From the IMG/VR virus record IMGVR_UViG_3300020153_000001, positions 1 to 64,000 of that record: 64,000 nt of DNA, one strand, 5' to 3'. Positions within the stretch are counted from its first letter, which is position 1, and each line of letters begins with the position of its first letter. Below the pieces are notes generated by a model. The model was given only the letters and a program-made list of their open reading frames with translations. It searched no databases and was not told the DNA's origin. The stretch comes from a virus. Of the stretch, positions 45,541-62,191 are shown in pieces. Made by a program: the position numbers and the translations under genes.

Positions 45541-48500
45541 TTAAGCGATAAGGTCAGTCTCTATACCAGCTAATGGTACGCTAGCCGTTCCAAAGGAATC
45601 ATTTCGTTTACCAGACTGGGCTATATTCTGACCTGGTGGGTTAACCTGAGGTGCTGTTCGAGTTGGAGGAACTCCCGACGATCTAGACGAGAGAGTACGC
45701 ACAAGAGGAGGAACTTCCTGAGTTGCAACTAGCGGCGGCTGGCTGCCGCCCGCAGAATATATAGACCGACGACCGGGAGCCGGCAACGATTGAACATTTT
45801 CGTCGAACGGAGCTGGAGGCTTATGGCCTTCAGATAATCGTTTTAGGGAAGAATACATTTGGTAGTAGCCTTCGCTTAACTTACCAGGAATATTCCGAAC
45901 ATCGCCGCTTAAGATTGCCCCAGCGACTCGGTGAATATAATCCATATTTCCTCCCGTACCGGACGCGAGCAACGCATAAACTACATCGCGGTATTCGATC
46001 TTACCGAGTTGATAGTCTCTCACAATCTTACTCACCACGTCTACAAACTCTGGTGTAAATCTACCCCTACCTACAGTGGCAAACTGCTTCCTAATTATAT
46101 ACGCGGAATAGTTCGCCAAGTCCTGCCGGGTAGGATTTTCTGGCAGCAAATACACGGGCGGACCATAGTCCGGTTGTGTCGTATCTGACTGAGACGCCGG
46201 CGGTCGGGTCGGACGCGTTTGTGCTACCGTAAATTCATCGTCCAATGACTCCCTTTGCCCGCGAAGAAACTCTCTTACACGCCGCCTTTCAGCTATTCCA
46301 GGATCTATAGGCACTCTATTTTCTCCAGCATATTGGCGATCACGCGACCTATCCCTGAACGGTAATGGTGTTCTTTTCTGTCTTTCTTCCCAGGCCTTTC
46401 TCCACCAGTCGTGTTCGTGGCCGAAGTTGCCGCCCGGGAATAATTCATCAACGTCTTTAGAAGCTCCCGGATACGCCGCGGATCTGCCGTGTAACATGAT
46501 GTCGTAGTCATCAAGAACTTTAGTACCACGGTTGGTGATCTGGTTATATGCTTCCTTGATCTTGTCCCATTCTTCCGGAGAGTAAATACTCTTTAGCTGA
46601 GCTACTAAATTTTCAACTGATGCCCTACCCTTTGGACCATGTCTAGCCTCGTGCCCTAGAGAACTTTGAATTTGCAACAGCCTTATCAGACCTATCGCAT
46701 TTCTGACGGAATGGCCGTCGACGTACTGATTACCGTTTTCGTCCTGTTTAGCAAAATGCCGGCTCGCAATACCTATAACGTCTGCTTTATCCCAAAACGT
46801 GTCATAGCCTAACCTGCGCCAGTTGTAGCTATCGCTCCACTGGTCCGCGATTTTTAGCGCGTCCTCAGAAACCTTTCCATACACAGTATCAATAACTCTG
46901 GTGTAGTCTTTATAATCCCGGTTCTTCATTACTTGGTTGTAATAGCTAGTCGCTTCCTTGTGTTTTTGCGCCGATTCCTCCAGCCTCTCATCTATGGTTT
47001 TTTGTACGGTCACTACTCTACCGTCCGGGAACACGGCAAACGTTCGACCGGTCTTTTCATCTTTGTATACGCCAGGCGATAAGCCCTTAGGCGGCGGCTG
47101 CTGCAAGACCTTGATGTGTGGTGGTATATTTTGTGCCGGTTCCCTTGCAGCTTGTTGTTGTTGCTGTTGTTGGTCAGCCTCCGGTTGTTGGTCAGCCTCC
47201 GGTCGCCGGTCAGTACGTCTAGTACGAGCCTCCTGCACTCCATCTTGCGTAAATCCTGGGGCTATGCTTAGGTTTGGCGCACGTTTAGACAGTTTACTAG
47301 CGTCAGCCTTGTCGACATATTGGTTTACGTGCGGCCTTGCCAGCAGCTGTCCAACAAGCACGTGACCTAGCGACGCTTTTTGGTCTTTCGGCAGAGACTG
47401 AAGTAGTGCTAAGTATGGCTCCAATGTATATAAAAGCTTACCATATTCGTCCTGCGGAAGCACATCGCTAAGTTCTTCCATCGAAATTCTGAGCTCATCG
47501 GCCAGCTTTCCAACGGTCATGTTGAGATCGACGGGCTGCTTCTCATTTATTAATTCGGCAAGTTTCAATATACCATCATATCGATCAAGCCCCCTTAAGA
47601 AGTTGATGATATCTATAATCGCCTTGAATGGAACTTTATCGTCGACGCTTTCAACATATTTCTGTTTTATAAAATGCGACACCATAAAATTAATCGCATC
47701 ATCGGGCACGTTGGCCGCTTTTGCTTTAGCGATTAACTCTCGCAGCGTTATTTCCGGCAGGTTTAACTCTATCCACGCGTCATTCACCGATTCTTGTGCT
47801 TGTTTCGTAAACGGAAGCAGCGCTGTCGCGATAGACGCAAGCTTACTATTGAGTCTGCGTAGATAAGTTTGCCTCACGTTATCCGAGAATTCTCCTCCGA
47901 AAATAACCTTGCAGGCTTCGTCTAACCGGCCTTGCTTGGCAGCGCCTTTAAGGTATGATCTTAAAAAATAGTACCACGTGCCAGAATCGACCTGTCTTGA
48001 CTCCTTTATTTGCTTAGCGAAAAAGTTCGCGGCTGTCGCTTCTGGCGAAGGAAGCGGAGTAGTACTGAGCTTTCTATATATCTCGTTAAAACGAGAATAT
48101 GGCGGCGGCTGGATGCCGAGTCTGCTTGCTAGTTGTTCTCCAATCTTGTCGGCAAGCGGTTGTAGTTGTGGATGGTGTGGATAGTATCGAGAAACTATCC
48201 CAAGGAACTTATCAACAAACTCTGGGGGCAGATTGTTGCCACTATATATCTCTGGATGTTTTCGGATAAGATCGCGAGCCTGCGCTACGAAATCCTCAGG
48301 AAACGCGCCCGGATTTATCCCTGATACTCGCAGCAGCGCTGCGGCGGCGGTTCTCTGAAAAAAGCTGCTTTCGGGGTTAAAGTAGTCCAAAATCGGCTTG
48401 ATCTCGTCTCTTTTAACAGGCGGAACTATAATCTTGTAGTACTTATGAATGTCGCCAGCGTCCGTCGATTCTTTAATAAGTGGTCGCGGGCAGTTAGATA

Positions 48501-48543
48501 AGTTATTGATAGCGTTATTGAGTCTGTTGACATATGCGGACAT
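45541..48543 (-). CDS. 1000-aa multi-domain hypothetical protein (putative inner-head/ejected)
   Basis: Helical domains joined by Q/P-rich linkers; FTKQAQ; isolated HEARH; SD from palindrome copy 10. Confidence 0.85.
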   Translation of the reverse strand: MSAYVNRLNNAINNLSNCPRPLIKESTDAGDIHKYYKIIVPPVKRDEIKPILDYFNPESSFFQRTAAAALLRVSGINPGAFPEDFVAQARDLIRKHPEIYSGNNLPPEFVDKFLGIVSRYYPHHPQLQPLADKIGEQLASRLGIQPPPYSRFNEIYRKLSTTPLPSPEATAANFFAKQIKESRQVDSGTWYYFLRSYLKGAAKQGRLDEACKVIFGGEFSDNVRQTYLRRLNSKLASIATALLPFTKQAQESVNDAWIELNLPEITLRELIAKAKAANVPDDAINFMVSHFIKQKYVESVDDKVPFKAIIDIINFLRGLDRYDGILKLAELINEKQPVDLNMTVGKLADELRISMEELSDVLPQDEYGKLLYTLEPYLALLQSLPKDQKASLGHVLVGQLLARPHVNQYVDKADASKLSKRAPNLSIAPGFTQDGVQEARTRRTDRRPEADQQPEADQQQQQQQAAREPAQNIPPHIKVLQQPPPKGLSPGVYKDEKTGRTFAVFPDGRVVTVQKTIDERLEESAQKHKEATSYYNQVMKNRDYKDYTRVIDTVYGKVSEDALKIADQWSDSYNWRRLGYDTFWDKADVIGIASRHFAKQDENGNQYVDGHSVRNAIGLIRLLQIQSSLGHEARHGPKGRASVENLVAQLKSIYSPEEWDKIKEAYNQITNRGTKVLDDYDIMLHGRSAAYPGASKDVDELFPGGNFGHEHDWWRKAWEERQKRTPLPFRDRSRDRQYAGENRVPIDPGIAERRRVREFLRGQRESLDDEFTVAQTRPTRPPASQSDTTQPDYGPPVYLLPENPTRQDLANYSAYIIRKQFATVGRGRFTPEFVDVVSKIVRDYQLGKIEYRDVVYALLASGTGGNMDYIHRVAGAILSGDVRNIPGKLSEGYYQMYSSLKRLSEGHKPPAPFDENVQSLPAPGRRSIYSAGGSQPPLVATQEVPPLVRTLSSRSSGVPPTRTAPQVNPPGQNIAQSGKRNDSFGTASVPLAGIETDLIA

Positions 48544-48544
48544 T

Positions 48545-48564
48545 TTTTGACTCCGGAGTCAAAA
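48545..48564. repeat. Palindrome copy 10 (perfect); holds the beta'-C TGA stop and the next gene's GGAG
   Basis: Read directly. Confidence 0.95.
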
Positions 48565-50412
48565 TTGCCTGGCCTGTTCGACAACACCCTTAGCCCATTG
48601 CTGAAGGGGTATACCTATTGCTTTAGCAGGAACAAAGCTTGTGCCGTAAATATCAGCCATAGAACCCTGTCTTACCGCCGATAGCAGCGCGCGTACCTGG
48701 TTCGAGCCAAACAGTCTGGTCATCCAGTTAGGATCAAATTCAAGCGTAGAAGCCGCACGGACCATGTATGGTTCAAACGGCGGCGGCTCGCTATGAACAA
48801 CGATGTCTTTTATACCAGCTTCCCTTAGCTCTTTAACGACAGACTGTTTGATCTTCGTACCTATGGTATAGTGCAACACGGGAACCTCTAAGTAATAGCC
48901 TATAGCGCTATCGACGGGCACCCTCATACTACCACGACGGGGCTTCCATCGCTTTACTATTTCGCCATACGGCACAATTTCGTCTAAATAAAACCCCCCA
49001 AACGGCTGGGTTATAACAACATGGTCGATAAGCCCACGTGCTAACAGCTCGACGTTTCGTCTATGTACCGGCTGACCAGCATCTCGCATGGCGTCGCAAA
49101 ACATCTTAACAAACGCGCGTCGACCTTCGCCTATTCCTTTTTGTCTCACTACCTCGGCAGGGTTAGGTAGCCCCTCCGTAATCATGTCACCGGCTTCTAC
49201 AGTATCGCCTTCTTTCACTATAGGAGGATGGCTAGGCGGCGAAAGATGCTCCACGTCGCCAACAACGATTTTCCATTGGCCGATCTCGTTTCTTGTGATG
49301 GACCGAACTTTACCATCAACCTGACTGTGTATTGCCCCGCCCACAAACGTCTTTGGGACGTTTAGCATCTGTTCGAGTACCTTAAAACCACTAAACTTCG
49401 TCACACCGCCCGTGTGCTTTGAGCTTATAGATGTTTGCGTTATTCGCTCTCCTATGGCCTGCGCCGCGGAAAGACCAGGTATGCTACCGATTTCAGGAAG
49501 TCGACCGTGTTCGCGTATACCAGCATCGACAGCATAGACGCCGTCAACTGCCGGGCTAGCAATAGGACTACGAACAACGATCTTTTTAATGCCGTCTTTC
49601 TTGAGGTCTTCGTATACCGCCGGAGTAATCTCTGTACCGGCTGGCCATCTTCCTGCAGGAAGGGCTAAGAATGCGCCGATATTGTCGGGGTCGTCTGCAT
49701 TTACCGGCAACCCTAACGGGTAAGGTAGCTTAGCCTTATGATCATGGCCTATGACAACTAATCTATGAGCCGCTCTGTTTAGAAGTTTTGAAAGATAACC
49801 GCTTCTGGCGACGCCCAGCTTAGAATCTGCTAGTCCCTTTCTTGCTCCGTAGCAAGCAGCCCAGAACTCTGCTGTCGGTACACCAGCTGAATAGCTAGAA
49901 AGGACAGGGAATGGTACAACTTCGCCAGCCCTGTCGAAATACGCCGTATCGCCCATAATAAGCCGCTTAAGCATTGCAGGATTGCCTCTGGCGCCGGAAT
50001 AGACGTGTTCATAGAATCGGTTATTCCGCGCCTTGGCCTCATCCATCGTCAATTGAAGCAGCGTTTGCGAATGGGCAAATATAGCTTCAGATATCTTTTT
50101 GCGCTTCTCGTCGTCTGGCAGATCGCTTCCCGCAATACGCTCAATATCTTTTAAGATGGCTGGACGGTAGGAATAAGAAGATGGGAGGGGCTTTAAGTCT
50201 TCAAGGGAAAAAGATGCGCCGTCGCTGGCTAGTAGCGCCTGGACCGCGAGCTGGTTAAGCCGCCTTGTAATTTGCCCGTACTTATCAGGATACTTCTTAG
50301 CAAGTTCGGCGTAGAAGCTATTTACAGACTTCTTCGTGAACTCCTCGGGCAGACTAAGGTCAGAAGGGAGAACTTCCGAGAGTAAAAGGCGGCCTACCGT
50401 AACCTGATTCAT
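48559..50412 (-). CDS. rpoC: RNA polymerase beta' subunit, C-terminal half
   Basis: TVGRLLL, SGARG, bridge helix GARKGLAD..SGYL, trigger loop AAQAIGERITQ..HTGG, VHRRNVELLARG. Confidence 0.93.
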   Translation of the reverse strand: MNQVTVGRLLLSEVLPSDLSLPEEFTKKSVNSFYAELAKKYPDKYGQITRRLNQLAVQALLASDGASFSLEDLKPLPSSYSYRPAILKDIERIAGSDLPDDEKRKKISEAIFAHSQTLLQLTMDEAKARNNRFYEHVYSGARGNPAMLKRLIMGDTAYFDRAGEVVPFPVLSSYSAGVPTAEFWAACYGARKGLADSKLGVARSGYLSKLLNRAAHRLVVIGHDHKAKLPYPLGLPVNADDPDNIGAFLALPAGRWPAGTEITPAVYEDLKKDGIKKIVVRSPIASPAVDGVYAVDAGIREHGRLPEIGSIPGLSAAQAIGERITQTSISSKHTGGVTKFSGFKVLEQMLNVPKTFVGGAIHSQVDGKVRSITRNEIGQWKIVVGDVEHLSPPSHPPIVKEGDTVEAGDMITEGLPNPAEVVRQKGIGEGRRAFVKMFCDAMRDAGQPVHRRNVELLARGLIDHVVITQPFGGFYLDEIVPYGEIVKRWKPRRGSMRVPVDSAIGYYLEVPVLHYTIGTKIKQSVVKELREAGIKDIVVHSEPPPFEPYMVRAASTLEFDPNWMTRLFGSNQVRALLSAVRQGSMADIYGTSFVPAKAIGIPLQQWAKGVVEQARQF

Positions 50413-50674
50413 GGTATCGAGCTAAGTCCTGATCCGATGGTTGTGCGGGAACAGACAACTGTGGCATAAACGGCTTGGCATCGATAACTTGCGTAGGAGC
50501 GCGTTCGGCTGGATAACCTGTCATTGACAGTACTTTTGGGAAATCAGCGCTTACGCAAGTATCGAATACAAGCACGTTTCCATTATCAAATCCTGCAGCC
50601 ACAGCGTTGCCGAATGTATCTAGTACGACAAACTTCTTACACTCTAACTCTTTATCGTCTATGATAATTTTCAT
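50360..50674 (-). CDS. Small hypothetical protein
   Basis: 104 aa; overlaps the beta'-C start by 53 nt. Confidence 0.55.
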   Translation of the reverse strand: MKIIIDDKELECKKFVVLDTFGNAVAAGFDNGNVLVFDTCVSADFPKVLSMTGYPAERAPTQVIDAKPFMPQLSVPAQPSDQDLARYHESGYGRPPFTLGSSPF

Positions 50675-50721
50675 TGTGCTACACCAACTGTAAGTTTAAT
50701 TTGAAATGGCCGACGTTACGG

Positions 50722-50886
50722 CTATATCTTTGGAGCTTTAGTAGGTTTAACGTACTTTGGCATTACGGCACGCGCGGTACGCGCTGGCTGATTTGTCTTC
50801 TTCGCCTCTGATTCGGCACGACGAAGAAGATGCTTCAACGACAAAACGGGCCGTAGCGAGAAAAACTGTCTCTTTTTTCTAGCCAT
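50722..50886 (-). CDS. 54-aa basic ORF below the track threshold
   Basis: MARKKRQFFSLRPVLSLKHLLRRAESEAKKTNQPARTARAVMPKYVKPTKAPKI, preceded by AGGGTG. Confidence 0.4.
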   Translation of the reverse strand: MARKKRQFFSLRPVLSLKHLLRRAESEAKKTNQPARTARAVMPKYVKPTKAPKI

Positions 50887-50904
50887 AGTTAAAGTCACCC
50901 TATT

Positions 50905-51678
50905 TTATGGCTGTATGCCGAATAGTGCGTGTGGTAACATCCAACCATACGTTGTTGGACTGCGCAGGATCATTTCGAGTTGTTGGTTATTAGCGGACAG
51001 CGCACTTGTAATAGCAGCCCTTGCAGTTTGCGCGTCCGCTAGCATGCGCTGCGCATCCTTACTACTCTTATTAGGTGTCGCCTGATATGCTATCCTGCTC
51101 GCTAAGTACGTGTTCAGTCTATCGTTTATCTTATTGCGGTCCGCGGGGTCGGATAGAGTCAAATGAGATAAAACCTTAACGGTCCGCGCAAACATCGCAT
51201 CGTCTAATGCGGTGTAGAATACGTTGAGCTCGTTGACGGTTTTATTCGACCGGAGTGCGCTACGAAGCAATTTCAAGTCGCCGTCTTGTATCGCTTCGTA
51301 GGTTTTCATATATAGCTCTGTCTCGTCACCATGACCTATCACATCCTTGAGCGAGCTGATGCCAGACGAGGCGGGCGGCTGCCTTGTAAGCCACGCTAGC
51401 TGACTAAACTCCTCAAGCTCTTTAAGCCCCTTAAGCTCATCAGCAGGTTCTGTCGGTTTCGAGTAGTTTAATAGAGAATATAAACCACCGCCCGCGGCAC
51501 CCAAAAGCCCGCCAAGCAAAGTCTTGCTTCTTTGGCCTGGAAACAGTAAATCAAGCAGGGCGCCTATCGCTAGACCGGCCCCACCGCCCAATAGGGCGGG
51601 CTTTGCAAATCTAGCTAACTCCTCCCAATCAAGGGCAAGCTTTGTAAAACTGTCGTTTGCAAAATCGTAGATTAGCAT
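50905..51678 (-). CDS. Membrane-segment protein
   Basis: FTKLAL followed by two Gly-rich hydrophobic helices; AAGGAGG SD. Confidence 0.8.
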   Translation of the reverse strand: MLIYDFANDSFTKLALDWEELARFAKPALLGGGAGLAIGALLDLLFPGQRSKTLLGGLLGAAGGGLYSLLNYSKPTEPADELKGLKELEEFSQLAWLTRQPPASSGISSLKDVIGHGDETELYMKTYEAIQDGDLKLLRSALRSNKTVNELNVFYTALDDAMFARTVKVLSHLTLSDPADRNKINDRLNTYLASRIAYQATPNKSSKDAQRMLADAQTARAAITSALSANNQQLEMILRSPTTYGWMLPHALFGIQP

Positions 51679-51706
51679 ACCTTATCTGCCTCCTTATATA
51701 TGCATT

Positions 51707-52081
51707 CTATTTAGTAAACCATTTCTGTTGTATTGCTTTATACCAGTTCGCAAAGTTGACCTTTTCCCTCAACCCCGGCGACATCGCAGTTAACGCAAGA
51801 CCGCCTAACGCAAGAAGTATCGGCACAAACGGCTCTTTCGACACAAAAGAGCCAAGTACCGCCAATATAGTTGGCAATGTACCATAACCAGCGAGCTCGG
51901 TAGGCAACTGGCGTCGTAATTCCTGTTCCGCTGCAGCTCGTTGTTTGCTTACGTAATCACCAATTAAGTTGGTTAGCTCATCTGCTTTATCTTGTGGAAG
52001 TATACCAGCCAGCGTCTGGCGTATTTTACCAAGAGTATCTTGCTGTGCCTGTGCTTGCTTTGATAGTAGCCTTATGGACAT
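51707..52081 (-). CDS. Small membrane protein
   Basis: LSKQAQ; two C-terminal hydrophobic segments; GGAGG SD. Confidence 0.75.
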   Translation of the reverse strand: MSIRLLSKQAQAQQDTLGKIRQTLAGILPQDKADELTNLIGDYVSKQRAAAEQELRRQLPTELAGYGTLPTILAVLGSFVSKEPFVPILLALGGLALTAMSPGLREKVNFANWYKAIQQKWFTK

Positions 52082-52083
52082 GT

Positions 52084-52803
52084 CTATCCTCCGAATATCG
52101 ATTTCTTAATATCCGGCGGTATAGATGCCGTATTTTCGTTGGGCTGCGCCGTCTCAGGTGGCGGCGATAGTGCCGGAGTAGTTTGTTCTTTTTCCTTAGG
52201 CGACTGCCGTACTTCTTCCTTTTCTGTCAAGTATACCTCTTCGTCAGACAACGCGTCTGACGGTATTTTCAAATTCAGCGCGTCGTAGATGCCTACTAGC
52301 AGCTTCCTGACTTTTACGAGTTCTGTATAAAGCGTAGTCGGTGTAACTTCTGCTTTTTGCACCTTGGGTGTCTCTTCACGCTCTAGCTCTTCTTTTGGCT
52401 TGCCTTCCGGTTTTTCCTCGGGTTTGCCCTCAGGCGGAGGTTCAGGCGGAGGAGGAGGCATAGCACCGAGTAAACCCATTAACGAGCCAAGGTCACCAGC
52501 GCCGGCAATCGGCATTGGTCCACCCGGCCCGGGAGGCATCGCGCCAGGCGGACCGCCCATAGGAGGCCCACCCATAGGAGGCCCACCCATTGGTGGGGCG
52601 CCTGGAGGACCACCAGGAGGAGCCATGCCAGCCATATCCATTGGCGGCATGCCACCTGTAGGTGGGGGCATCATACCAGCAGCTGGATCCTGCCCCGCTT
52701 TGACCGGAGTAAAGCCGCGTTTTTCCATATCCTTCTGCAAGGCGTTCGATAAGTACATCGCAATGATTGATCTAGCGAGATCGTCGACGTTATATGTCGC
52801 CAT
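52084..52803 (-). CDS. Pro/Gly/Met-rich low-complexity protein
   Basis: GGPPM repeats followed by an acidic segment; AGGGAG SD. Confidence 0.75.
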   Translation of the reverse strand: MATYNVDDLARSIIAMYLSNALQKDMEKRGFTPVKAGQDPAAGMMPPPTGGMPPMDMAGMAPPGGPPGAPPMGGPPMGGPPMGGPPGAMPPGPGGPMPIAGAGDLGSLMGLLGAMPPPPPEPPPEGKPEEKPEGKPKEELEREETPKVQKAEVTPTTLYTELVKVRKLLVGIYDALNLKIPSDALSDEEVYLTEKEEVRQSPKEKEQTTPALSPPPETAQPNENTASIPPDIKKSIFGG

Positions 52804-52814
52804 CTTTGTCTCCC

Positions 52815-53096
52815 TTATAGCTTTATGACTACACGTCGCTTGCCTTCCTGGTCGATTTCGCCGTTGTCGCTTAAGTATGCTGTATGTTCTTTTTCGGCTT
52901 CTTCGTCCTCTTCGCTGCTTCCAAACCAGTTTTTATACGCATACCAACCAAGCAAAGACAGTCCGGCTAGGCTAAGTACTACAGGCCAAAACGCAGAATA
53001 AGAAACTGTCGACGTGGTCGATGGCCCGGCGCTATTTGTCGCGGCGTTTGCTGTTGCACTAGCGGCCTGGCCGAGCTTTACGGCTTTATTTTTCAC
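52815..53096 (-). CDS. Small single-pass membrane protein
   Basis: AFWPVVLSLAGLSLLGWYAY; AAGGAGG SD. Confidence 0.7.
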   Translation of the reverse strand: MKNKAVKLGQAASATANAATNSAGPSTTSTVSYSAFWPVVLSLAGLSLLGWYAYKNWFGSSEEDEEAEKEHTAYLSDNGEIDQEGKRRVVIKL

Positions 53097-53128
53097 TAGA
53101 CGCCTCCTTTACCGATTTCTTATTATAT

Positions 53129-53137
53129 ATTGTACCA
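53129..53137 (-). promoter_or_regulatory. Extended -10 element TGGTACAAT
   Basis: Intergenic, 33 nt upstream of the 53096 start. Confidence 0.5.
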
Positions 53138-53234
53138 GATAAAAGTCTTATGTTGGACAATCCGGTCTAATATATTTAGCCAGACGCTAATCTCCTCGGA
53201 ATCATTTGTAAGTAAAACGGGACGATCAATTTTC

Positions 53235-54866
53235 CTAAGGCTGGTATTTAAAAAAGCCTTTTGTCAAAATATCAATTATCGGCGTTGTATATGTTTTACT
53301 AAACTCGCTTTCAGGGATAGGCGGCTTATATCCATATCTCATTCGACGTATATTAATATACCCGTCGCCAAGTCTGCTGCGGCTGGGTCCGATTGTACGA
53401 AAATATGGAATTACGTCTTCTACAACCCAGTCAATCGGGGTCTTGACTACATCTGAACCGCCTGGCAGCAGCCCCGCGCGCTTAGCCGACTGAACAAGTG
53501 GATGGTCGTCAAGACCTTTTACATATCCAATGAAAGCTATACTAAACGCATCAGCCGCAATCTCGCTTACAGTCCTTTGTAGGGAGTTCTCGATAGGAAG
53601 CGGGTAATTCATACTATGCCCAAACTCGTGGGCGAATACAGGCAGCTTATCCGATGTTTCAATGGTGTGCGTGCGAGGGCGATAAGCGCCTAGTAATTCC
53701 GGTGGCGGTGATTTTACCGATAGTCCGGGAAACCTAGTACCGAACTTGTTGTATAGATGATTTAAAACTTCTCCTACTCTACTCCATTCTTCAGTTTTCA
53801 ATTGCACCCGGCGATCTACTATTGCTGACGCCGCTTCGACTTCGCCAAGTATCAACTCAAGTTCATCTAAGTCACTTTGCAAAATTGTAGACATATTTTC
53901 TGGCTTGACCGCCGTTGGGCTCTGTGCAATGCCGAGGCGCTCGCTAAGCCTCCTGAGTGGGCCGGGCAGTTTTGGTGTTCTGCTAATTTCTGGATACGTA
54001 TAAAGCTCAGCTACAACTGGGCGTTTTGAAGGAAACAAAGTACGAAGATGGGACATTTGGCTGTCGCCTGTAATGAGCCCCTTTACTACCTGCTGTGCTT
54101 GCTCTCGACCGAATCTTTTCGTGAGAAACTGTTTCAAACTGTCTATAGATTCGCCACCATGAACCACTCCAACAGCCAACGAAACGCGCGCCGGATCTGC
54201 GAGTATTCTTTTTACAGCAATCTGCCTCTCTGACGGATCAATATCGAACATATTTACAAAAGACTCAACAGCAGAACGCACTTCATCCGAAGTCATCTGG
54301 CTGATGACAGGAGCATATTTGTCGTGGAAGCTGCTTAGGAGATGCTGTGCGGCCACGTCCGCGACGCCAGGATAGAGCCTCATTGTCAAATCCATTACTA
54401 GCCTGTCTCTTAGCGTCGCGTCAAACCGCTGCCCACCAACTATAGACCTTACCTCTTCAGGATAAGATATTAGAATCGCAGACAAATAGCGCCCAGCTAG
54501 ATCATTTTTGGTCTTATCGTCAATGCTCGCCAGATAGGCGTTAAAATCGGGCTTATCCGATGAAAATATATGTTGCTGTACCGGCTTTGCCAGCAGCGAT
54601 CTGGCAAAGAATTCAAAATCAGGTCTGAAGCTAATTGCCGAACGGCCCAACAACGCGTGGTACGATCTGTCTAGCGGCGCTATTCCAATAGCTCGATTAA
54701 GAGCTGCTGCTAGGGGGTGCCCGAGAACGTCCGGAGTAGTCTTTACTTCAATAGGCTCAAACTCGCTATAACGCCCCGTTGCTGCAGAGTATGTCTTCTC
54801 AAGCGCGCGCTCTCCGGATAAAAGTTTCCTTAAGTATGTATATACGTTCGATACCGCGGCTGGCAT
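53235..54866 (-). CDS. HExxH metallopeptidase-like protein, paralogue of 54985-56703
   Basis: AHEFGH and SEIAADAF; shares LYPGVAD and DDHPLVxxAKRAGLLPGG with its neighbour. Confidence 0.85.
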   Translation of the reverse strand: MPAAVSNVYTYLRKLLSGERALEKTYSAATGRYSEFEPIEVKTTPDVLGHPLAAALNRAIGIAPLDRSYHALLGRSAISFRPDFEFFARSLLAKPVQQHIFSSDKPDFNAYLASIDDKTKNDLAGRYLSAILISYPEEVRSIVGGQRFDATLRDRLVMDLTMRLYPGVADVAAQHLLSSFHDKYAPVISQMTSDEVRSAVESFVNMFDIDPSERQIAVKRILADPARVSLAVGVVHGGESIDSLKQFLTKRFGREQAQQVVKGLITGDSQMSHLRTLFPSKRPVVAELYTYPEISRTPKLPGPLRRLSERLGIAQSPTAVKPENMSTILQSDLDELELILGEVEAASAIVDRRVQLKTEEWSRVGEVLNHLYNKFGTRFPGLSVKSPPPELLGAYRPRTHTIETSDKLPVFAHEFGHSMNYPLPIENSLQRTVSEIAADAFSIAFIGYVKGLDDHPLVQSAKRAGLLPGGSDVVKTPIDWVVEDVIPYFRTIGPSRSRLGDGYINIRRMRYGYKPPIPESEFSKTYTTPIIDILTKGFFKYQP

Positions 54867-54883
54867 GGATTATTAATGGCAAC

Positions 54884-54903
54884 TTTTGACTCCGGAGTCA
54901 AAA
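54884..54903. repeat. Palindrome copy 11 (perfect)
   Basis: 17 nt upstream of the ATG at 54866. Confidence 0.95.
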
Positions 54904-54984
54904 TTCTTGTTGGCTTATGGCCTAAAATCCGAAGTGTCACCAACGACATCATCACTTACTCATTTAGTTTGTGCTTTTTCTTAT

Positions 54985-56703
54985 CTATTCGCGATTATCG
55001 TTTTTAATAGTCGAGTGGGCTCGTTCCAAATCGTCGACGTTCGGCGCAAGCGGTCTGGCAAGGTCGCGCATTAACGGGCTTAGGAAGTTATCCGACCCTA
55101 TTACGCGGCCGAGCGAAGAGCGTCCAAGCTTCCTATACACAGAGATACTGACATCACCTAAAGCGCTTCGACTGGGGCCTGCGCGTTCTACATAAGGTAT
55201 GACGTCCTTTATCACCCAGTCAAAAAGGCCTGTTGTTTGTTTTGCCCCGCCCGGAAGCAAACCAGCGCGCTTGGCTAATATAACAAGCGGATGATCGTCC
55301 TTACCATACACGTATGCCGTTGCTGCTATCGAAAAGGCGTTAGCGATGATCTCCCCGACTAGATTCGTATAGTAATCGTTTTCTAGCGGACTACCCTCAA
55401 ACGAATAGGTCAGGCCGTGGGCGAGCTCGTGGAAAAACGTAGATAATTTTCTATCCATCATCAGCTTTCGTTCCCGCGGCAGGTAAAGACCTGCCGCGTC
55501 GGGCGTAGGCTCCTCCGGCGAAATCCCTGGCAGAGTTCCACCGAATCTTTCATATAAGTGTTTGACGACCTCTTCGGCTCGCGCCAGCTCTTTGTCCGAC
55601 AACGTTTTATCTTCAATCGCTACACCAATAAGTCCTAATGTCCCTGCTAGCTCTCCGTGAACTAGCTCAAGCCTTCCTACTTCTCTAACTCCATCCCTCA
55701 AATCTTCTAAATCTTTTATTGATACATCGAGAAACCATATTAGATTTTCTCTGGAAGGCTCTGTTATCGGTCTGCCGTATTGCGGTCTTATTCTCGTTTG
55801 TGGTAACGCAAGAATTTCCGTGACAAGTCCGCGACCTTCTCTAGGTGTCGAATAAAGCGGCCTGACGCGCTCACTTGCTCTGCCAGCGGTAAGCCCGCGC
55901 ATGATGGACTTGATCTGCTCATCATCTACTTTGCCAGCTAGGAAATCCTTTAACTGATCAATAGAGTAGCCTCCGCTTGCTACCACTGCTGCTAGGGTAG
56001 TTCGTCTTGGGCTTAGTAGTATCTGCGATATGGCTTTTTCCCTATCCTTGCCGCTAATACCAAACATGTCAACATACTTTTCGGCAAGCAAGCGTTTATC
56101 CGCCGGGCTCATTTGATTAACGATAGGGCCGAATATTCTGTAATATTCGTCTGCCAACTGGTCGGCGGCGATGTCAGCTACACCAGGATAAAGATGAAAG
56201 ATAAGCTTTAAGAACAAGGTATCTCTTAGCGCGTCGTTAAATGGTAATCTTCCTATTATTTCCCGCTCTTTTTCTGGCGTACGCGCGAACAGGTGGCTTA
56301 GGAAACGACCGGCCAAACTGGCACGTACGTTAGGGTCAACGCTCGCTAAGAATTTAGAAAAATCTGGATTTTCGGAAAGAAGATACCTTCTGACAGGCTC
56401 GTCTAGGGCTTGTACAGCCTCTCGTCTGAACTTATCGTTGAACGTAAGGATTGATTTACGTTTTAGTTCTTCGTAAGTAGGCGTTAGCGCTTGTATTCCA
56501 GTAACTCTTGTTGTAGCGGCCTCTAACGGCGTAAGGTACGACGGCAAATACGTGGGTAATATAGCATTAGCTGCAGAATATTCCTTGGGACGGCCAGTTA
56601 GGGCAGAATAAGTAGAAGCCGGACCGGTAGGTTCCGGCTTACCTGACAGTAGTTGCTTCAGCTGGTTATAGACATAGCCTATAGGACCACCGTTACCATT
56701 CAT
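54985..56703 (-). CDS. HExxH metallopeptidase-like protein, paralogue of 53235-54866
   Basis: FHELAH and GEIIANAF; AAGGAGG SD. Confidence 0.85.
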   Translation of the reverse strand: MNGNGGPIGYVYNQLKQLLSGKPEPTGPASTYSALTGRPKEYSAANAILPTYLPSYLTPLEAATTRVTGIQALTPTYEELKRKSILTFNDKFRREAVQALDEPVRRYLLSENPDFSKFLASVDPNVRASLAGRFLSHLFARTPEKEREIIGRLPFNDALRDTLFLKLIFHLYPGVADIAADQLADEYYRIFGPIVNQMSPADKRLLAEKYVDMFGISGKDREKAISQILLSPRRTTLAAVVASGGYSIDQLKDFLAGKVDDEQIKSIMRGLTAGRASERVRPLYSTPREGRGLVTEILALPQTRIRPQYGRPITEPSRENLIWFLDVSIKDLEDLRDGVREVGRLELVHGELAGTLGLIGVAIEDKTLSDKELARAEEVVKHLYERFGGTLPGISPEEPTPDAAGLYLPRERKLMMDRKLSTFFHELAHGLTYSFEGSPLENDYYTNLVGEIIANAFSIAATAYVYGKDDHPLVILAKRAGLLPGGAKQTTGLFDWVIKDVIPYVERAGPSRSALGDVSISVYRKLGRSSLGRVIGSDNFLSPLMRDLARPLAPNVDDLERAHSTIKNDNRE

Positions 56704-56739
56704 CGGGAAAACCTCCTTTTTGTTAAAGATAGGTAACTA

Positions 56740-57816
56740 CTATTTTGACTCCGGAGTCAAAGATTTTTGGGCCCTGCTACCTAAAGCCCGAATTATGGGG
56801 TCAAGCAGTCTTCCTAATCCGCCTCGCGGCCTATCGTTTCCGAATTTATCCATAAACTCCTTCACCTTCTTATAAGTGTTCGCTCTTTCCGGATACCAAC
56901 TTATCCAATGCTGCGCCAACCATCTATCCGGAATAGTGCCGCTATATCCCAGTACGGCTAGAGACGGCGGAACAAATTTCTTAGAAATCGGGAAATCCGG
57001 TACGGCTTCTTTTAAGGCCTTCCATTCTGGCCAATCTGGTTCCGGCAGCCAACCGGCGCTTACTGCCATCACGACAGGCCATGTCAGCTTATTGTTATAG
57101 TAGTCGAGAACTGCGGCGGCAAACGTGTTTGCGCCAATTTCATTTATAGTACGCCATATCGTTACCATCGAAGCCAGCCTTGGGTCTCTTACCATAACAT
57201 AAGGCTGATCTTCGTCACCCTGCAGACCAAAGTAGTCAAAAATACTTTTAGCCATGAGCGTATCCAACGAGTGTCCTAACTCGTGGGCGATAACGGCTGT
57301 TCCTTTAGGCGTTGCCATGACATCTGGATCGATGATCAGCTTACCTGTGAGTGCGTTAAATCCACCCAACAAGGAGGGCTGTCTACCGACTTCGGCTGAT
57401 GTGATATATGGCATGGCTCGAAGTGCGGCATAATCTAGAATCTGCTTAACCTTTGCCGTATCAACCAACCTTCCGCCGCTTGTAGCTGCATTGAGCGCTT
57501 GCCACAAACGCTCCTCGGATTCGGTTTGCGCCCTACCTATCGGGGAGGAAAAAAATGCCGGTGCAGAAGAACTAGCGTCTTCGGGCATAATACTATGTAG
57601 TTTGGCAACCATTTTTGTTACCGGACCGCGCAACTCCTGTTCTTCCTGATAACGAATGTCTTTTATAGTAGGACCATATTCCGACCATTGATACAGACTA
57701 TTTAATAGGTCAACATTATGTGCCCGTTGTTCGTGGTGATGTGTAACGGGGGGTTCTTTGCTTTGGGCGTTTTTTAGCAGGTTTTGTAGATCATTAACGG
57801 CTCGTTTGCAGATCAT
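56740..57816 (-). CDS. ImmA/IrrE (M78)-like metallopeptidase-domain protein
   Basis: IAHELGH and NEIGANTFAAAVL; ends in LTPESK*, encoded by the palindrome. Confidence 0.8.
   Translation of the reverse strand: MICKRAVNDLQNLLKNAQSKEPPVTHHHEQRAHNVDLLNSLYQWSEYGPTIKDIRYQEEQELRGPVTKMVAKLHSIMPEDASSSAPAFFSSPIGRAQTESEERLWQALNAATSGGRLVDTAKVKQILDYAALRAMPYITSAEVGRQPSLLGGFNALTGKLIIDPDVMATPKGTAVIAHELGHSLDTLMAKSIFDYFGLQGDEDQPYVMVRDPRLASMVTIWRTINEIGANTFAAAVLDYYNNKLTWPVVMAVSAGWLPEPDWPEWKALKEAVPDFPISKKFVPPSLAVLGYSGTIPDRWLAQHWISWYPERANTYKKVKEFMDKFGNDRPRGGLGRLLDPIIRALGSRAQKSLTPESK
56743..56762. repeat. Palindrome copy 12 (19/20 match)
   Basis: TTTTGACTCCGGAGTCAAAG. Confidence 0.93.
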
Positions 57817-57832
57817 CTTTCTAGGTCCTAAG

Positions 57833-60800
57833 TTATTTCTCGATTATCTTTATTGGCTGGTCTATAGCAATTTCTCCTCTAGCAAACGCGGCAAGCGCGT
57901 CTTTTTTCGTTTTAAATATTTTTACTGGTTTACGGCTATCGACGCGACTAGCATACCATAGGCCGATGAGATAGTCTTGTTGGGGGGTATAAACAGGCTC
58001 TGCAAATATGGCTGCTTTGAATAGATTCTTCGACGGTAGCAATTTATCGTAGGCTTCCTTGACGGCGTCGTCGGATGCGGGTACATGGAATTGCATCGTA
58101 TCGCCGTCGAAGTCAGCGCCAAAGGCCTGTGTAATAAGAGGGCTTATCTCTATGGTTTTACCCGGTATAAGAACGGGTCGAAACGCCATAATTCCGTACT
58201 TGTGAAGCACGGGCGCGCGGTTTACTACAACAGGCCGCTCTTGGATAACACGTTCCAAAGACTGCTTAGCATAGGGATGGCGCTCATTAACAAGCATATT
58301 CGCCACTAGAAACGGCGAAGCACGTAACGCTGGCGGAACGTTACGAAGCACGCTATCAGGAAGGCCGCGATGCATTAGGTCGCGAATAATAAACGGCTTA
58401 TACGCGACCCAAGCCGCCTCCTCGGGAATACCTATCTCGTCAATATCTAAAGAACTGTTCGGCGTAATGACTGCCCTACCAGCCAGCGTGGCACTAATAC
58501 CAAGCATTTTTCTCTGCATTATGCTGGCTTTCGGGCTGGAACCAACCACGGTAGCCAGCAAACCCTTAATACCCTGCTTCTTCAGGGCGTAGCTATGTGG
58601 ATCGTCTAGGCCTGTAAGCCCGTAAAAGATGGACATGAGCGATCTTCGCTCTTCCCGTAGATCGCTAATATCCGAGGCCAGTTCTTTATAAGCGCCGATG
58701 AAGTCGATGAGCTCTTTATAAAGATAGTTCGCATCATTAACGACAAGCGTGCCGTCTTTAATCATCGAGATAGGTCGAAAGATGGGCGGAATGACTGGAA
58801 CTTTGGTCCAAAATAGCTCGGACGGGTGGATACTAAAGCGTTTGAGGCCTTCAAGGTAGTTTAGCTTTTTGATAAGCGACGACCGTTTCGATGGCGTAGC
58901 AGTTTGGAGTTCTTCCCTGGTACGCGTTATTTCTCTATCGACGTCATAGTTTTTAAATAGTTCATAAAGCGCCATCGGACCGGATATAGGCCCTTTTGAT
59001 TGACGATACCGTTCAGGTATGGGAAGCTCGCCAGCAAATATGCTAATGAGGTCCTTCTCGCTTACGCCAATCAATCTACCAAGCAGTTCCACCATGATTG
59101 GGTTTGGAACCGGCTCTGGTAGCTTGATGGCGCTCCACCGCGTGCCAGCTAGACCTCCGGTAAGACCGTCGTCAAACAGCCCACCCTCTACCGTTCGGAA
59201 ACCGTCGCTATAGACACGAACTGTCTCGGAGTTCTGAACATATCGGTTACCCGCTAGTTGATCTATATCTTTATCTCGAAGCGCAAGAAGCCGTATACCA
59301 GAACGTTCTTGGATGGGGTTAATCCCTGCCCCTCTAAGCAAGGCGACAAATTTGTGCCATATATGCGGGATCTTGGGCTGCGGTAGGCTGTGGCCAGTCA
59401 TAAATTGTCGCCATGCCTCATCGTTCGCTTGTCCGCGGATAAGTGCGGCATCGGTTATTGTGTTGTACGCGCCGTGCGCCAACAGCGCGTTAAGCTCAAG
59501 GATCCCCAACCGTTTGGCTTTTCCCGATTCACCAACAGTGGGGATATCTTCTGCGCTTGCAGCAATAGCCTCGTCTACGGCCTGAAGCTTATCTTCTGCA
59601 ATATGGCACAGGCGCAGAATATATCCATAGCCTGTAAGCGCGCGTATTTTTCTACCCGTAACGGGATCTGTGAGCACTTCTGTATCGCTAACACCATGCT
59701 TCTTTAGCACGTCAGAAACGTATTGATGCAGCCTGTCGGCGTGTTCAAAATCCTTTACATAGATTGGCTTTCCTATCTTCTTAGCAACCTTCCCTAGAAG
59801 TGCTTCATATATTTGACCAATATTAGCCCGCGAAATAATAAACGGCGACGCGATGATATCGACAGGCTTGCCATCTTCGCCTATGGGCATCTGGCTATCG
59901 GGTTTAATGATAACGACGCCTTTATTTCCATATAGCCCCGCAATCTTATCTCCTTGTTGGGTCTCGAATATCGACTTTACGATAGCAACAATGCCCTCTT
60001 TTGTCTTACCAGCCGCTATTACTATCCCAGGCGCGTCATAGTCCCACGTAACGCTGTCATCAACAAACATCTTGTGGGAAGCTCTAGCGGTGGTGATAGG
60101 AAGCATCTTGGCACTAAGAATAATCGGCTCGCCCTTACGGAGAACCGTTCCTGGCCGCGCCACGCCCTCGTTAGTATACTTCTCTAAGTCCTCAGCGGTC
60201 ATTTTGCCAGGAAATAGCGACACGTAAGCCTGTTTTCCGCTAGGCTCTGCTGTTTGGTGCTGATAGACAAAAAGATTCTCGGCAGACAGTTTGCGCGCAA
60301 ATGACTGTGAGATAACGAAAGCGTCTTCGTATGTATCGCCGGTAGCCATATAGGCAATCTTTGCGTTTGTTCCCACCGCAAGATTGCCGTTTATATCGGT
60401 AAAATTGCTATAAGCCAAAAGCTGGCCAGGCTTTACGACATCGCCAGGCTTTACAAGCGGCTCGTTATATAAAGCCGTCTGCCTGGCATAAGGCGTATTG
60501 TTGTGCAACCAGATCTTCTTTGTGCTTCGGCTGTCAGCGTCATAAAGCTCGATAAAATCGGGAGTTACTTTGCGTACGACCCCCTTATATGGGCTATAAA
60601 CGGCACCAGCGTATTTTCCAAATATTGATACAAACGGTCTTCCACGGCTATCAACCGATTGCACTAAAGGCGCTTCTCTGTTTATGATGGGCAATGCTTG
60701 CGTAATAAATCGGCTTCCCATCGCCACGCGCTGCGGGAAGCAGGCGCTTTTCATGGGGATAAGTGACGCAAGCGGACCAAAGATATGCGTTGCATCCTTG

Positions 60801-62191
60801 ATGTAATGCGTTATTTTTTCCCTTGGTACGAAGAGCTCGTAGCCTTTTGATATTGCACGAACGTAACGACGACCGCTTTCTAGCTCGCCAGGGAACGCTA
60901 TCGTAACGTCCTCTACTTGATCCGATCTTAGCCAAGTCTCCTTATTTGTCTTTGCGTCGATGACTGGAATATAAAGAAGGCCGTCCGATCCTCGTCTTGC
61001 CGAGATTGTCATCCTTGTTTCTACCCCTACTTTGAGGGATTCTGGGGTAGTAACAGGGTCGATAAATCCTAGCTGCGTAGCATGGACGTCCCTGGCAGAA
61101 GATGGGATGGCCTCTACGGCGCCTATACCACCCTCCCCCATTCGTGTAAGACGGAAGGCGTGGTCAAGGATTTCGACGGGGTTGATCTCGGCTGGCGCCA
61201 TCACAAGCCCAGAAGCGCGAATTACATGATCAACGATAGGCTGGGCTGGTCTTGGCGGTATGATCTCTTTTTTGGGATTACGCATGGCCTTCCAGAGGAT
61301 ATTTCTTAAAATGAGGCGCATCTTTGCAGGGACGTTTTCGGCAAAGATATCCTCTGGACCAAGGAACTGCTGGTTGGCCAAAGAGTCTCTATCGTCTTCT
61401 CTGGCCTTGCCTTGGAGAAGCTGGATCATCTTGGCTGTAGCTGCTAGCGCCGCGCGTTTGTCGACATAGTTCTGCATTAGCCCTAAGTTGCGGCGCATCA
61501 CGTCCTGCGCTACAGGAACTTGCAAGAACTCGCGCGCAAGATCTACATCCGTAGAGCCAAACATTCTTTTGGCAAAACGCCGCGCATCTTCTACTTTCTC
61601 TGTTACATTGCGTGCCAGAAGATCAGCACCCCATGCTTGCCTTAGCTCTTCATCAGTTACTCCGATAGCTCTTAGAATAGGATAAAGCCGAAACTTCGCC
61701 TGTCCTGCTTGTATGTAGAATATGCCTGTCGTAGGGTCGAGTACGTAACGATGGGTTTTGCCGGCTGGGAGGTTGATGAAAGCCTCCGGCTCCCCTGTCT
61801 GACGGAACCGGACGTAGACGCCAGGTTTTAGCCGTTGTTGGTTCGTAATGGAATACTCAACGCCGCCTATAACAAAGACGCCTCGGTCGGTAAGATAGGG
61901 AACTTTGGCAAGAAGTGTGCGTTTCTCGATAACGCCTGATGGCGTTGTTATTCGTATCGTTCCATAAAGATCCCGCGCCAGTGTGCTGTTTGTGATAATG
62001 GCGCGCTTGTGATTAATAGGGCTTAAGATTTCTTCTTCTGGTTCCTTGTCTTTATATTCCACGTCTTTTAGCTCGATAGTCCAGTTACCCTGGCTATAAG
62101 AAGGCGTGGAAATAAAAGAATTACGGACAGCGTCGAAGATACGCTGCCGTATCGTCTTAACATCGGCAATATCGATAAGCTCGCCAGTCAT
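57833..62191 (-). CDS. rpoBC: RNA polymerase beta subunit fused to the N-terminal half of beta'
   Basis: Beta motifs: RDVHATQLG..TPES, GDKIAGLYGNKG, SRANIGQIYE, RLGILELNAL. Junction near 59305. Beta' motifs: PVIPPIFRP, GRAVI, NRAPVLH, GADFDGD (58100-58120). Confidence 0.95.
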   Translation of the reverse strand: MTGELIDIADVKTIRQRIFDAVRNSFISTPSYSQGNWTIELKDVEYKDKEPEEEILSPINHKRAIITNSTLARDLYGTIRITTPSGVIEKRTLLAKVPYLTDRGVFVIGGVEYSITNQQRLKPGVYVRFRQTGEPEAFINLPAGKTHRYVLDPTTGIFYIQAGQAKFRLYPILRAIGVTDEELRQAWGADLLARNVTEKVEDARRFAKRMFGSTDVDLAREFLQVPVAQDVMRRNLGLMQNYVDKRAALAATAKMIQLLQGKAREDDRDSLANQQFLGPEDIFAENVPAKMRLILRNILWKAMRNPKKEIIPPRPAQPIVDHVIRASGLVMAPAEINPVEILDHAFRLTRMGEGGIGAVEAIPSSARDVHATQLGFIDPVTTPESLKVGVETRMTISARRGSDGLLYIPVIDAKTNKETWLRSDQVEDVTIAFPGELESGRRYVRAISKGYELFVPREKITHYIKDATHIFGPLASLIPMKSACFPQRVAMGSRFITQALPIINREAPLVQSVDSRGRPFVSIFGKYAGAVYSPYKGVVRKVTPDFIELYDADSRSTKKIWLHNNTPYARQTALYNEPLVKPGDVVKPGQLLAYSNFTDINGNLAVGTNAKIAYMATGDTYEDAFVISQSFARKLSAENLFVYQHQTAEPSGKQAYVSLFPGKMTAEDLEKYTNEGVARPGTVLRKGEPIILSAKMLPITTARASHKMFVDDSVTWDYDAPGIVIAAGKTKEGIVAIVKSIFETQQGDKIAGLYGNKGVVIIKPDSQMPIGEDGKPVDIIASPFIISRANIGQIYEALLGKVAKKIGKPIYVKDFEHADRLHQYVSDVLKKHGVSDTEVLTDPVTGRKIRALTGYGYILRLCHIAEDKLQAVDEAIAASAEDIPTVGESGKAKRLGILELNALLAHGAYNTITDAALIRGQANDEAWRQFMTGHSLPQPKIPHIWHKFVALLRGAGINPIQERSGIRLLALRDKDIDQLAGNRYVQNSETVRVYSDGFRTVEGGLFDDGLTGGLAGTRWSAIKLPEPVPNPIMVELLGRLIGVSEKDLISIFAGELPIPERYRQSKGPISGPMALYELFKNYDVDREITRTREELQTATPSKRSSLIKKLNYLEGLKRFSIHPSELFWTKVPVIPPIFRPISMIKDGTLVVNDANYLYKELIDFIGAYKELASDISDLREERRSLMSIFYGLTGLDDPHSYALKKQGIKGLLATVVGSSPKASIMQRKMLGISATLAGRAVITPNSSLDIDEIGIPEEAAWVAYKPFIIRDLMHRGLPDSVLRNVPPALRASPFLVANMLVNERHPYAKQSLERVIQERPVVVNRAPVLHKYGIMAFRPVLIPGKTIEISPLITQAFGADFDGDTMQFHVPASDDAVKEAYDKLLPSKNLFKAAIFAEPVYTPQQDYLIGLWYASRVDSRKPVKIFKTKKDALAAFARGEIAIDQPIKIIEK

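Follow-up and report, generated by a model that had tools for sequence, protein, structure and literature searches.

The stretch of DNA analysed in the present work, referred to below as the window, comprises positions 1 to 64,000 of the IMG/VR virus record IMGVR_UViG_3300020153_000001, a phage record of 135.5 kb with an estimated completeness of 94%, and thus takes up its first 64 kb. Its minus strand, which carries nearly all of its genes, encodes a bacterial-type RNA polymerase (RNAP) core that is split over two open reading frames (ORFs) of 1452 and 617 amino acids. The phage features of the record are matches to a major head protein and a large terminase, together with nearest relatives that are IMG/VR phage contigs, and the RNAP can be aligned to cellular enzymes. 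An earlier note on this DNA had described the polymerase as a streamlined enzyme in which both beta' zinc sites and the flap-tip helix of beta are missing, and had linked these losses to non-canonical promoter recognition. The positions that it assigned to the three stretches concerned were all confirmed, on the minus strand, and they appear below among the parts of the enzyme on which the argument depends.

57833..62191, minus strand: fused RNAP beta and beta' N-terminal half (P0001), 1452 amino acids, 2 cysteines.
59303..62191, minus strand: beta portion of the fused ORF, about residues 1-963, with an approximate boundary; the beta C-terminal motif lies at residue 947.
57836..59302, minus strand: beta' N-terminal (beta'N) portion of the fused ORF, about residues 964-1452; the beta'N alignment starts near residue 964.
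60053..60118, minus strand: truncated beta flap tip, residues 692-713, 22 residues compared to 33 in E. coli.
59120..59185, minus strand: junction left by the deletion of the zinc-binding domain, GGLFDDGLTGGLAGTRWSAIKL, residues 1003-1024 of the 1452-residue ORF.
58100..58114, minus strand: catalytic DFDGD loop in the context GADFDGD, residue 1360, read from the sequence.
48559..50412, minus strand: RNAP beta' C-terminal half (beta'C; P0121), 617 amino acids, 2 cysteines, with a match to Pfam Rpb1_5.
49738..49740, minus strand: codon of residue 225 (His) of beta'C, aligned with the Cys814 ligand in the beta'C alignment.
49519..49572, minus strand: remnant of the second beta' zinc site, RSPIASPAVDGVYAVDAG, residues 281-298 of beta'C, which aligns to RSVVSCDTDFGVCAHCYG.

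The fused ORF matches the Pfam families Rpb2_3, Rpb2_6 (1e-38), Rpb1_1 and Rpb1_2 (7e-26), its phmmer matches in the PDB are to bacterial beta chains (query residues 237-954) and beta' chains (query residues 1070-1450), and its top match in NCBIfam is PRK09603, a model of a fused beta/beta' subunit. The matches to Rpb2_6 and Rpb1_2, together with the DFDGD loop in beta', indicate that the two double-psi beta-barrel domains of the catalytic centre are present. The beta'N portion contains the clamp helices, the lid, the rudder and the catalytic loop, and its terminus coincides with the end of the cyanobacterial gamma subunit (RpoC1); the NCBIfam model rpoC1_cyan aligns to residues 1071-1447 of the fused ORF. 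There is no insertion or deletion of at least 8 residues between positions 180 and 390 of E. coli beta', so that the lid, rudder and clamp helices are untouched, and the D-x-D-G-D columns of the catalytic loop are invariant in the alignment of the fused-subunit family. The beta'C gene, which is separated from the fused ORF by 7.4 kb, encodes a protein whose phmmer matches are to the C-terminal halves of bacterial beta'; the aligned parts include the bridge helix, which starts at residue 189, and the trigger loop, which starts at residue 316.

AlphaFold2 (AF2), run on residues 560-1452 of the fused ORF with a 67-row alignment, produced a model with a mean predicted local distance difference test (pLDDT) score of 86.9, and the model of beta'C has a mean pLDDT of 88.1; the best fold matches of these models are bacterial beta', and the trigger loop of beta'C has a low pLDDT, as is expected of a mobile element. 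Because the catalytic parts, clamp helices, lid, rudder, bridge helix and trigger loop are all intact, the enzyme is predicted to transcribe by the normal two-metal mechanism. Its domain order is that of the bacterial core, its fusion point is that of the beta-beta' fusions of Helicobacter and Wolbachia, its split point is that of cyanobacterial gamma/beta', and the match extends to the catalytic loop, bridge helix, trigger loop and clamp helices. Unlike the bacterial core, however, it lacks Cys4 zinc sites, a flap-tip helix and lineage-specific insertions, and it is not accompanied by encoded alpha or omega subunits, in that no match to alpha (PF01000) or omega (PF01192) was found in the 135.5-kb record at its estimated 94% completeness. 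The description of the enzyme as streamlined is thus an apt one.

Homologues detected at E <= 1e-10 number 676 for the fused subunit and 1081 for beta'C, and they occur on phage contigs of up to ~246 kb, with catalytic and structural motifs that are invariant over at least 60 homologues at 40-85% identity. The enzyme appears to belong to the published mReC phage clade (PMC7481178), a placement which rests on sequence identity, this being 28-30% over the full length to the enzymes of two cultured phages, Salmonella phage Arash (gp206/gp216) and Vibrio phage D69, and about 25-28% to those of bacteria. Both of these phages have the same fusion of beta to beta'N, the same separate beta'C and the same deletion of the zinc domain, and in both, as in the phage studied here, the RNAP genes lie among head genes and have a partner sigma factor of the same family. 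They differ from it in having kept the second zinc site, whose four ligands are the sole cysteines of their beta'C, and in having a flap tip that is 30 residues long and contains LTETDMVLGRLHK, a helix-like stretch resembling the bacterial tip helix. The loss of the second zinc site and of the flap-tip helix is instead common to the phage studied and its ~100 nearest relatives. It was also observed that many of the RNAP-subunit relatives (P0041, P0066, P0071, P0076, P0130, P0189, P0209 and others) are 300-1000 amino acids longer and carry intein or LAGLIDADG domains (PF14528, PF14890, PF05203), and that a homing endonuclease interrupts the fused gene in Vibrio phages D181 and D148.

The second beta' zinc site (Cys814/888/895/898 in E. 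coli) is a standard feature of the bacterial enzyme, and the N-terminal Cys4 zinc domain of beta' is one that every multisubunit RNAP has been said to share (Lane & Darst, as cited in PMC7618050). The state of the N-terminal domain was evaluated by aligning Salmonella RpoC, whose numbering is that of E. coli, locally with MAFFT to the beta'N portions of 92 fused homologues. In this alignment GGLFDDGLTGGLAGTRWSAIKL bridges GLFC...RMGHIEL, and a clean deletion of 32 residues (within E. coli beta' 64-97) takes out Cys70/72/85/88. The whole domain is gone in 92 of 92 fused homologues, as well as in Arash gp206 and in D69, and the pattern that remains at the junction, GGLFD..LTGG..G.RWS.I.L, is found in every aligned fused sequence. 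At the second site Cys814 is replaced by His225 and Cys888 by Ser, and Cys895/898 fall in a 4-residue gap. Across the family the Cys814 column holds D in 41 rows, A in 19, S in 18 and H in 7, with Cys solely in the Arash row, the Cys888 column is Gly in 90 of 103 rows, and the ligand positions are non-Cys or gap in all 102 nearest beta'C homologues, the site being kept only in Arash and D69. The possibility that zinc is bound through His or Asp substitutes was considered and rejected, because what stands in place of the ligands is Gly, Pro, Ala, Ser or a gap, with no conservation of the kind that a ligand would show.

The absence of both beta' zinc sites is thus borne out by the alignments to Salmonella RpoC and to the homologue families, and the losses are traits of the clade rather than peculiarities of the phage studied. 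The AlphaFold modelling which had been proposed as a check, and which was run on both subunits, agrees with the alignments: the chain crosses the site of the former N-terminal zinc domain straight, at a pLDDT above 90, and pLDDT exceeds 92 around the former second site. A natural control is provided by Rhizobium phage RHph_TM21B (Kleczkowskaviridae), which also encodes a bacterial-type beta', but one that is unsplit and adjoins a DNA polymerase gene; this subunit keeps both zinc sites and has 16 cysteines. The enzymes therefore form a series in which RHph_TM21B has both sites, Arash and D69 have one, and the clade of the phage studied has none.

The length of the flap tip was counted between fixed anchors, E. 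coli V884 and L918, and is 33 residues in E. coli, 30 in Arash, 25 in most of the family and 22 in the phage studied. AF2 models the flap domain with confidence and the tip as a 12-residue coil without a helix, with pLDDT below 50 at residues 701-705. The anchor lengths and the modelled coil together uphold the claim that the flap-tip helix is missing, with the reservation that a model of the free chain would not show a helix that forms when a partner binds, so that the absence of the helix is to be read as a prediction. In bacteria, region 4 of the sigma factor docks on the flap-tip helix, and moving the pair blocks transcription from -10/-35 promoters while sparing extended -10 promoters (PMC3950348). 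If the tip has indeed been shortened to a loop, then the usual docking of region 4 on a flap-tip helix is not available to this enzyme. A prediction of the complex between the flap domain (alignment residues 70-185) and sigma region 4 (190-271) returned a score of 0.00, which counts neither for nor against an interaction.

The two polymerase ORFs are also almost devoid of cysteine. The earlier note had put the total at about four, and the exact count is 4 in 2069 residues (0.19%), at residues 484 and 862 of the fused ORF and residues 187 and 439 of beta'C, compared to an expected count of ~43 at the genome's non-virion frequency of ~2.1% (Poisson P(<=4) ~2e-14). When the nearest homologues that are free of inteins are counted, 74 of 92 fused subunits and 92 of 102 beta'C subunits contain no cysteine at all. 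Within the genome the use of cysteine is sharply bimodal: it amounts to 0.43% across 27.3-63.7 kb, a block which includes the major head protein and both RNAP genes, and to 0.25% across 104.7-115.6 kb, and the remaining blocks have 1.8-2.3%, with ~2% in the replication genes. An adaptation of the whole proteome to the environment was considered as a cause of the cysteine loss and rejected, since cysteine content is normal in this genome's replication genes.

A sigma factor is encoded elsewhere in the same genome, as follows.

88383-89198 of the 135.5-kb record, outside the window: sigma70-family protein (P0241), 271 amino acids, with Pfam regions 3 and 4.

Regions 3 and 4 of this protein score above the Pfam cut-offs, and the protein falls below all of the NCBIfam subfamily cut-offs. 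A scan of the genome with Pfam Sigma70_r2 gave no match, and region 2 becomes visible solely at the profile level: a profile built from 81 sigma relatives matches the solved structures of SigA, SigB and RpoS at E values of 1e-15 to 1e-9 over positions 12-244, which cover regions 2-4, and region 3 is matched by 81 of the 81 relatives. A word-index search gave one sigma relative and an exhaustive search gave 751 at E <= 1e-10. The family is Cys-free in 143 of 151 members. It has exactly one member in every one of the four complete genomes of related phages that were tested (E 1e-80 to 1e-98) and is also present in Arash, which makes five records in all; the Arash member is the virion sigma gp10, with 0 cysteines. 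Mass spectrometry of Arash virions found gp206 with the most spectra of any protein, gp216 in fifth place, and the sigma factor gp10 at 100% coverage (PMC10585845). Since the core and the sigma factor co-occur, share the constraint on cysteine and are packaged together in Arash, promoter recognition is most likely sigma-dependent and mediated by the phage's own sigma factor, not by that of the host. A second protein of related type was also observed: an 80-residue winged-helix protein without cysteine (101379-101621, minus strand, outside the window), which lies above the Pfam cut-off for Sigma70_r4_2 (32 bits) and is a candidate small DNA-binding regulator.

Two repeated DNA elements bear on the question of how promoters are recognized, and their positions are as follows.

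11452, 19451 (both in the window), 67264, 68336, 69956, 70323, 73904, 89833, 91536, 100735 and 128708 (genome positions), minus strand: GGCA(T/A)TTAA followed by t.aTGG.
1757, 8579, 10642, 19458, 29630, 34908, 40134, 48545, 54884 and 63185, in the window: copies of the palindrome TTTTGACTCCGGAGTCAAAA, with 18 more elsewhere in the genome.

The first of these is a strand-specific motif, GGCATTTAAt.aTGG (also written GGCATTTAAT.aTGG), whose 11 copies in the genome all lie on the coding strand and are mostly intergenic. The closest relative has 15 copies, all on one strand, and four more distant relatives have the motif at chance level. A TTG box 13-14 nt upstream accompanies only 9 of 26 motif sites. 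The motif resembles a phage promoter of the extended -10 type with a weak upstream box, and it is regarded here as a candidate for one. A candidate promoter dominated by its -10 element fits a polymerase which lacks a dock for region 4. The second element is a perfect 20-bp palindrome with 28 copies in the 135.5 kb, most of them immediately upstream of a gene. Because its T-run precedes the stem instead of coming after it, the element does not qualify as a classic terminator; it may serve as a translation operator or be bound by a dimeric regulator. Many copies run directly up to the ATG of the following gene, which places their GGAG 7 nt ahead of the start codon, and each half of the palindrome holds TTGACT.

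The earlier suggestion of non-canonical promoter recognition can consequently be retained only in part: the losses of the flap-tip helix and the zinc sites and the fit of the -10-like motif speak for it, but the presence of a sigma70-family protein encoded by the phage makes recognition probably sigma-dependent. For the same reason, the proposed test of whether the host sigma factor binds and directs the enzyme leaves something important out of account.

Two groups of phage polymerases are relevant to the interpretation of these results. The virion RNAP of N4 and other Schitoviridae (gp50; gp71 in DEV) is carried in the virion and injected, and its cysteine suppression is complete, with 0 in 3500 residues for N4 as counted here. 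It differs in being a single-subunit T7-like enzyme of unrelated fold which uses hairpin promoters and no sigma factor. Suppression of cysteine is a published conserved feature of injected Schitoviridae proteins, extending to the whole ejection operon, and exposure to disulfide-forming enzymes on the way through the periplasm has been proposed as its explanation (PMC11445570). The multisubunit RNAPs of phiKZ and AR9 are likewise phage homologues of beta and beta' without alpha or omega; phiKZ packages one of its two enzymes, and the non-virion RNAP of AR9 also has no beta' zinc domain (PMC7618050). In these phages, however, beta and beta' are each split and unfused, no sigma70-family homologue is present and the rudder is absent, whereas the phage studied has a fusion of beta to beta'N and encodes a sigma70 homologue; the similarity between the two groups is very weak, with PHROG matches of only 1e-5 to 1e-20. 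As a test of the proposition that packaged proteins are Cys-free, phiKZ gave partial support only: its virion proteins are poor in cysteine (0.49% compared to 1.3%), yet the packaged subunit gp80 keeps 6 cysteines (1.3%).

From the anatomy of the enzyme, the losses, their spread through the clade, the sigma gene and the pattern of cysteine use, we infer, as the interpretation that is rather more probable than all others together, that the RNAP core is packed into the virion with its own sigma factor and injected, and that it had to give up its Cys4 zinc sites on that account. The enzyme would be packaged together with the phage sigma70-family factor, and both would enter the cell with the DNA and transcribe early genes. 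Proteins that are injected are under strong selection against cysteine, for which unfolded passage through the tail and the periplasm and long exposure to oxidising surroundings have been proposed as reasons, and a Cys4 site could not survive selection of this kind. Its action on the two Cys4 sites would have removed the N-terminal domain by outright deletion and, in the sub-clade of the phage studied, would have replaced the second site by Gly/Pro-rich turns. Promoter recognition would then probably lean on sigma regions 2 and 3 and on a -10-proximal element. This likeliest reason for the losses was not seen in the earlier note: the suppression of cysteine, which is a mark of injected virion proteins, runs through the whole holoenzyme. 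Support for packaging comes from Arash, which has the same gene architecture and in which gp206 and gp216 rank with the proteins that are most abundant in the virion. A stronger statement, that this large and widespread clade injects a complete sigma-dependent multisubunit holoenzyme which has been rebuilt to need no cysteine and no structural zinc and in which region 4 is placed without a flap-tip helix, is put forward more tentatively, and the odds are somewhat against its holding in full.

Several points weigh against this interpretation. The virion proteomics come only from Arash, whose proteins are ~30% identical to those of the phage studied, and the Arash study, which lists 88 "structural" proteins, notes that abundant enzymes may contaminate virion preparations (PMC10585845). 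The cysteines kept by phiKZ gp80 mean that packaging alone does not force the loss of cysteine, and when gp80 is taken together with AR9, the link between packaging and cysteine loss is seen to be strong but not obligatory. The phage sigma factor may bind the host core and not the phage core. Finally, according to work cited in PMC3950348, the beta' zinc domain and zipper are important at extended -10 promoters in bacteria, and a purely extended -10 model is somewhat at odds with the lack of the zinc domain here.

The best-surviving alternative is that the polymerase is synthesised once infection has begun and does not enter the virion, and that the zinc sites and cysteines were lost for another reason, such as the evasion of some host defence or phage weapon which attacks thiols or zinc sites, or reductive drift in a fast-evolving viral enzyme. 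The non-virion RNAP of AR9 demonstrates that the zinc domain can be lost without packaging, and no virion function is recognised for the genes that lie between those of the RNAP or around them. Drift nevertheless fails to explain either the near-total removal of cysteine from three separate proteins across hundreds of lineages or the ~2% cysteine that is kept by the replication genes of the same genome, and the Arash orthologues of all three proteins have been found in virions. This alternative is accordingly considered unlikely.

It is likewise improbable, and at least to the same degree, that promoters are read without canonical sigma contact, for instance through the 20-bp palindromes extruded as hairpins in the manner of N4, with the phage sigma factor serving the host polymerase. 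The missing flap tip and zinc domain would suit such a mechanism, as would the 28 perfect copies of the palindrome, mostly just upstream of genes, and many phages are known to encode sigma factors that redirect the host RNAP (PMC7824862). On the other hand, the enzyme still has the clamp helices, lid and rudder, on which sigma region 2 chiefly docks, and the sigma factor and the RNAP co-occur one-to-one in every genome tested and have the Cys-free signature in common. The frequent placement of the palindrome against the ATG, with its GGAG 7 nt before, is moreover closer to what is expected of a translational or regulatory site than of a promoter. The proposition that the genes are decaying or are an assembly artefact, and the enzyme inactive, deserves practically no credence, since nothing beyond the missing elements suggests it and both frames are long and open, the motifs are invariant over the homologues, the AF2 models are confident and the same architecture occurs in cultured viable phages.

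The genes around the polymerase share its low cysteine content, and those in the interval between the two RNAP genes are as follows.

50360..57816, minus strand: Cys-poor ORFs between the two RNAP genes, 0-2 cysteines per ORF, with no Pfam or PHROG match.
56740-57816, 54985-56703 and 53235-54866, minus strand: three HExxH paralogues with 0-1 cysteine each and the motifs HELGHS, HELAHG and HEFGHS.

The HExxH paralogues of 572 and 543 amino acids are 38% identical, and the three proteins may be injected metallo-enzymes. Directly downstream of beta'C is an ORF of 1000 amino acids (45541-48543, minus strand) with 2 cysteines and no Pfam or PHROG match; in Arash the protein directly downstream of beta'C, gp217, is a virion DNA helicase. 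The head-gene block also contains two Cys-free low-complexity repeat proteins (44356-45213 and 52084-52803, minus strand), one with the repeat units GGGTTPPP and YPGW and the other with PPMGG. Outside the window, the second Cys-free block is headed by a protein of 756 amino acids (104698-106968, minus strand) with 0 cysteines and a match to ATP-dependent ligases (PHROG 114, E = 4e-25), whose neighbours have 582, 962 and 640 amino acids. Because RNA ligases have been reported in Arash virions, this ligase-like protein may be an injected enzyme.

The clade to which the enzyme is assigned is already known, and no description of the features reported here, namely the absence of any zinc site, the truncated flap tip and the co-evolving Cys-free sigma factor, was found in the literature searched. 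In a search of PMC7481178 (Weinheimer & Aylward 2020) by term, zinc, sigma and virion are not mentioned and "fused" and "fusion" refer only to crAssphage, and neither the flap nor zinc is treated in the text of the AR9 structure paper.

Neither zinc site is present in these hundreds of natural enzymes, most of which also contain no cysteine, so that the clade offers a ready-made minimal and redox-insensitive bacterial-type polymerase for structural and biochemical work. The series formed by RHph_TM21B, Arash and D69, and the clade of the phage studied allows the contribution of each zinc site to be tested, and the pairing of a short flap tip with a dedicated sigma factor makes the placement of region 4 without its usual dock directly testable. 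The Cys-free signature in the core and the sigma factor extends the rule that injected proteins avoid cysteine from the N4-like phages to a holoenzyme of cellular type, and it may help to predict the injected proteins of uncultured phages. If the phage does inject a zinc-free holoenzyme, then the architecture by which it recognizes promoters would be unlike that of every cellular holoenzyme, and both of the "universal" beta' zinc sites would be dispensable for folding and function.

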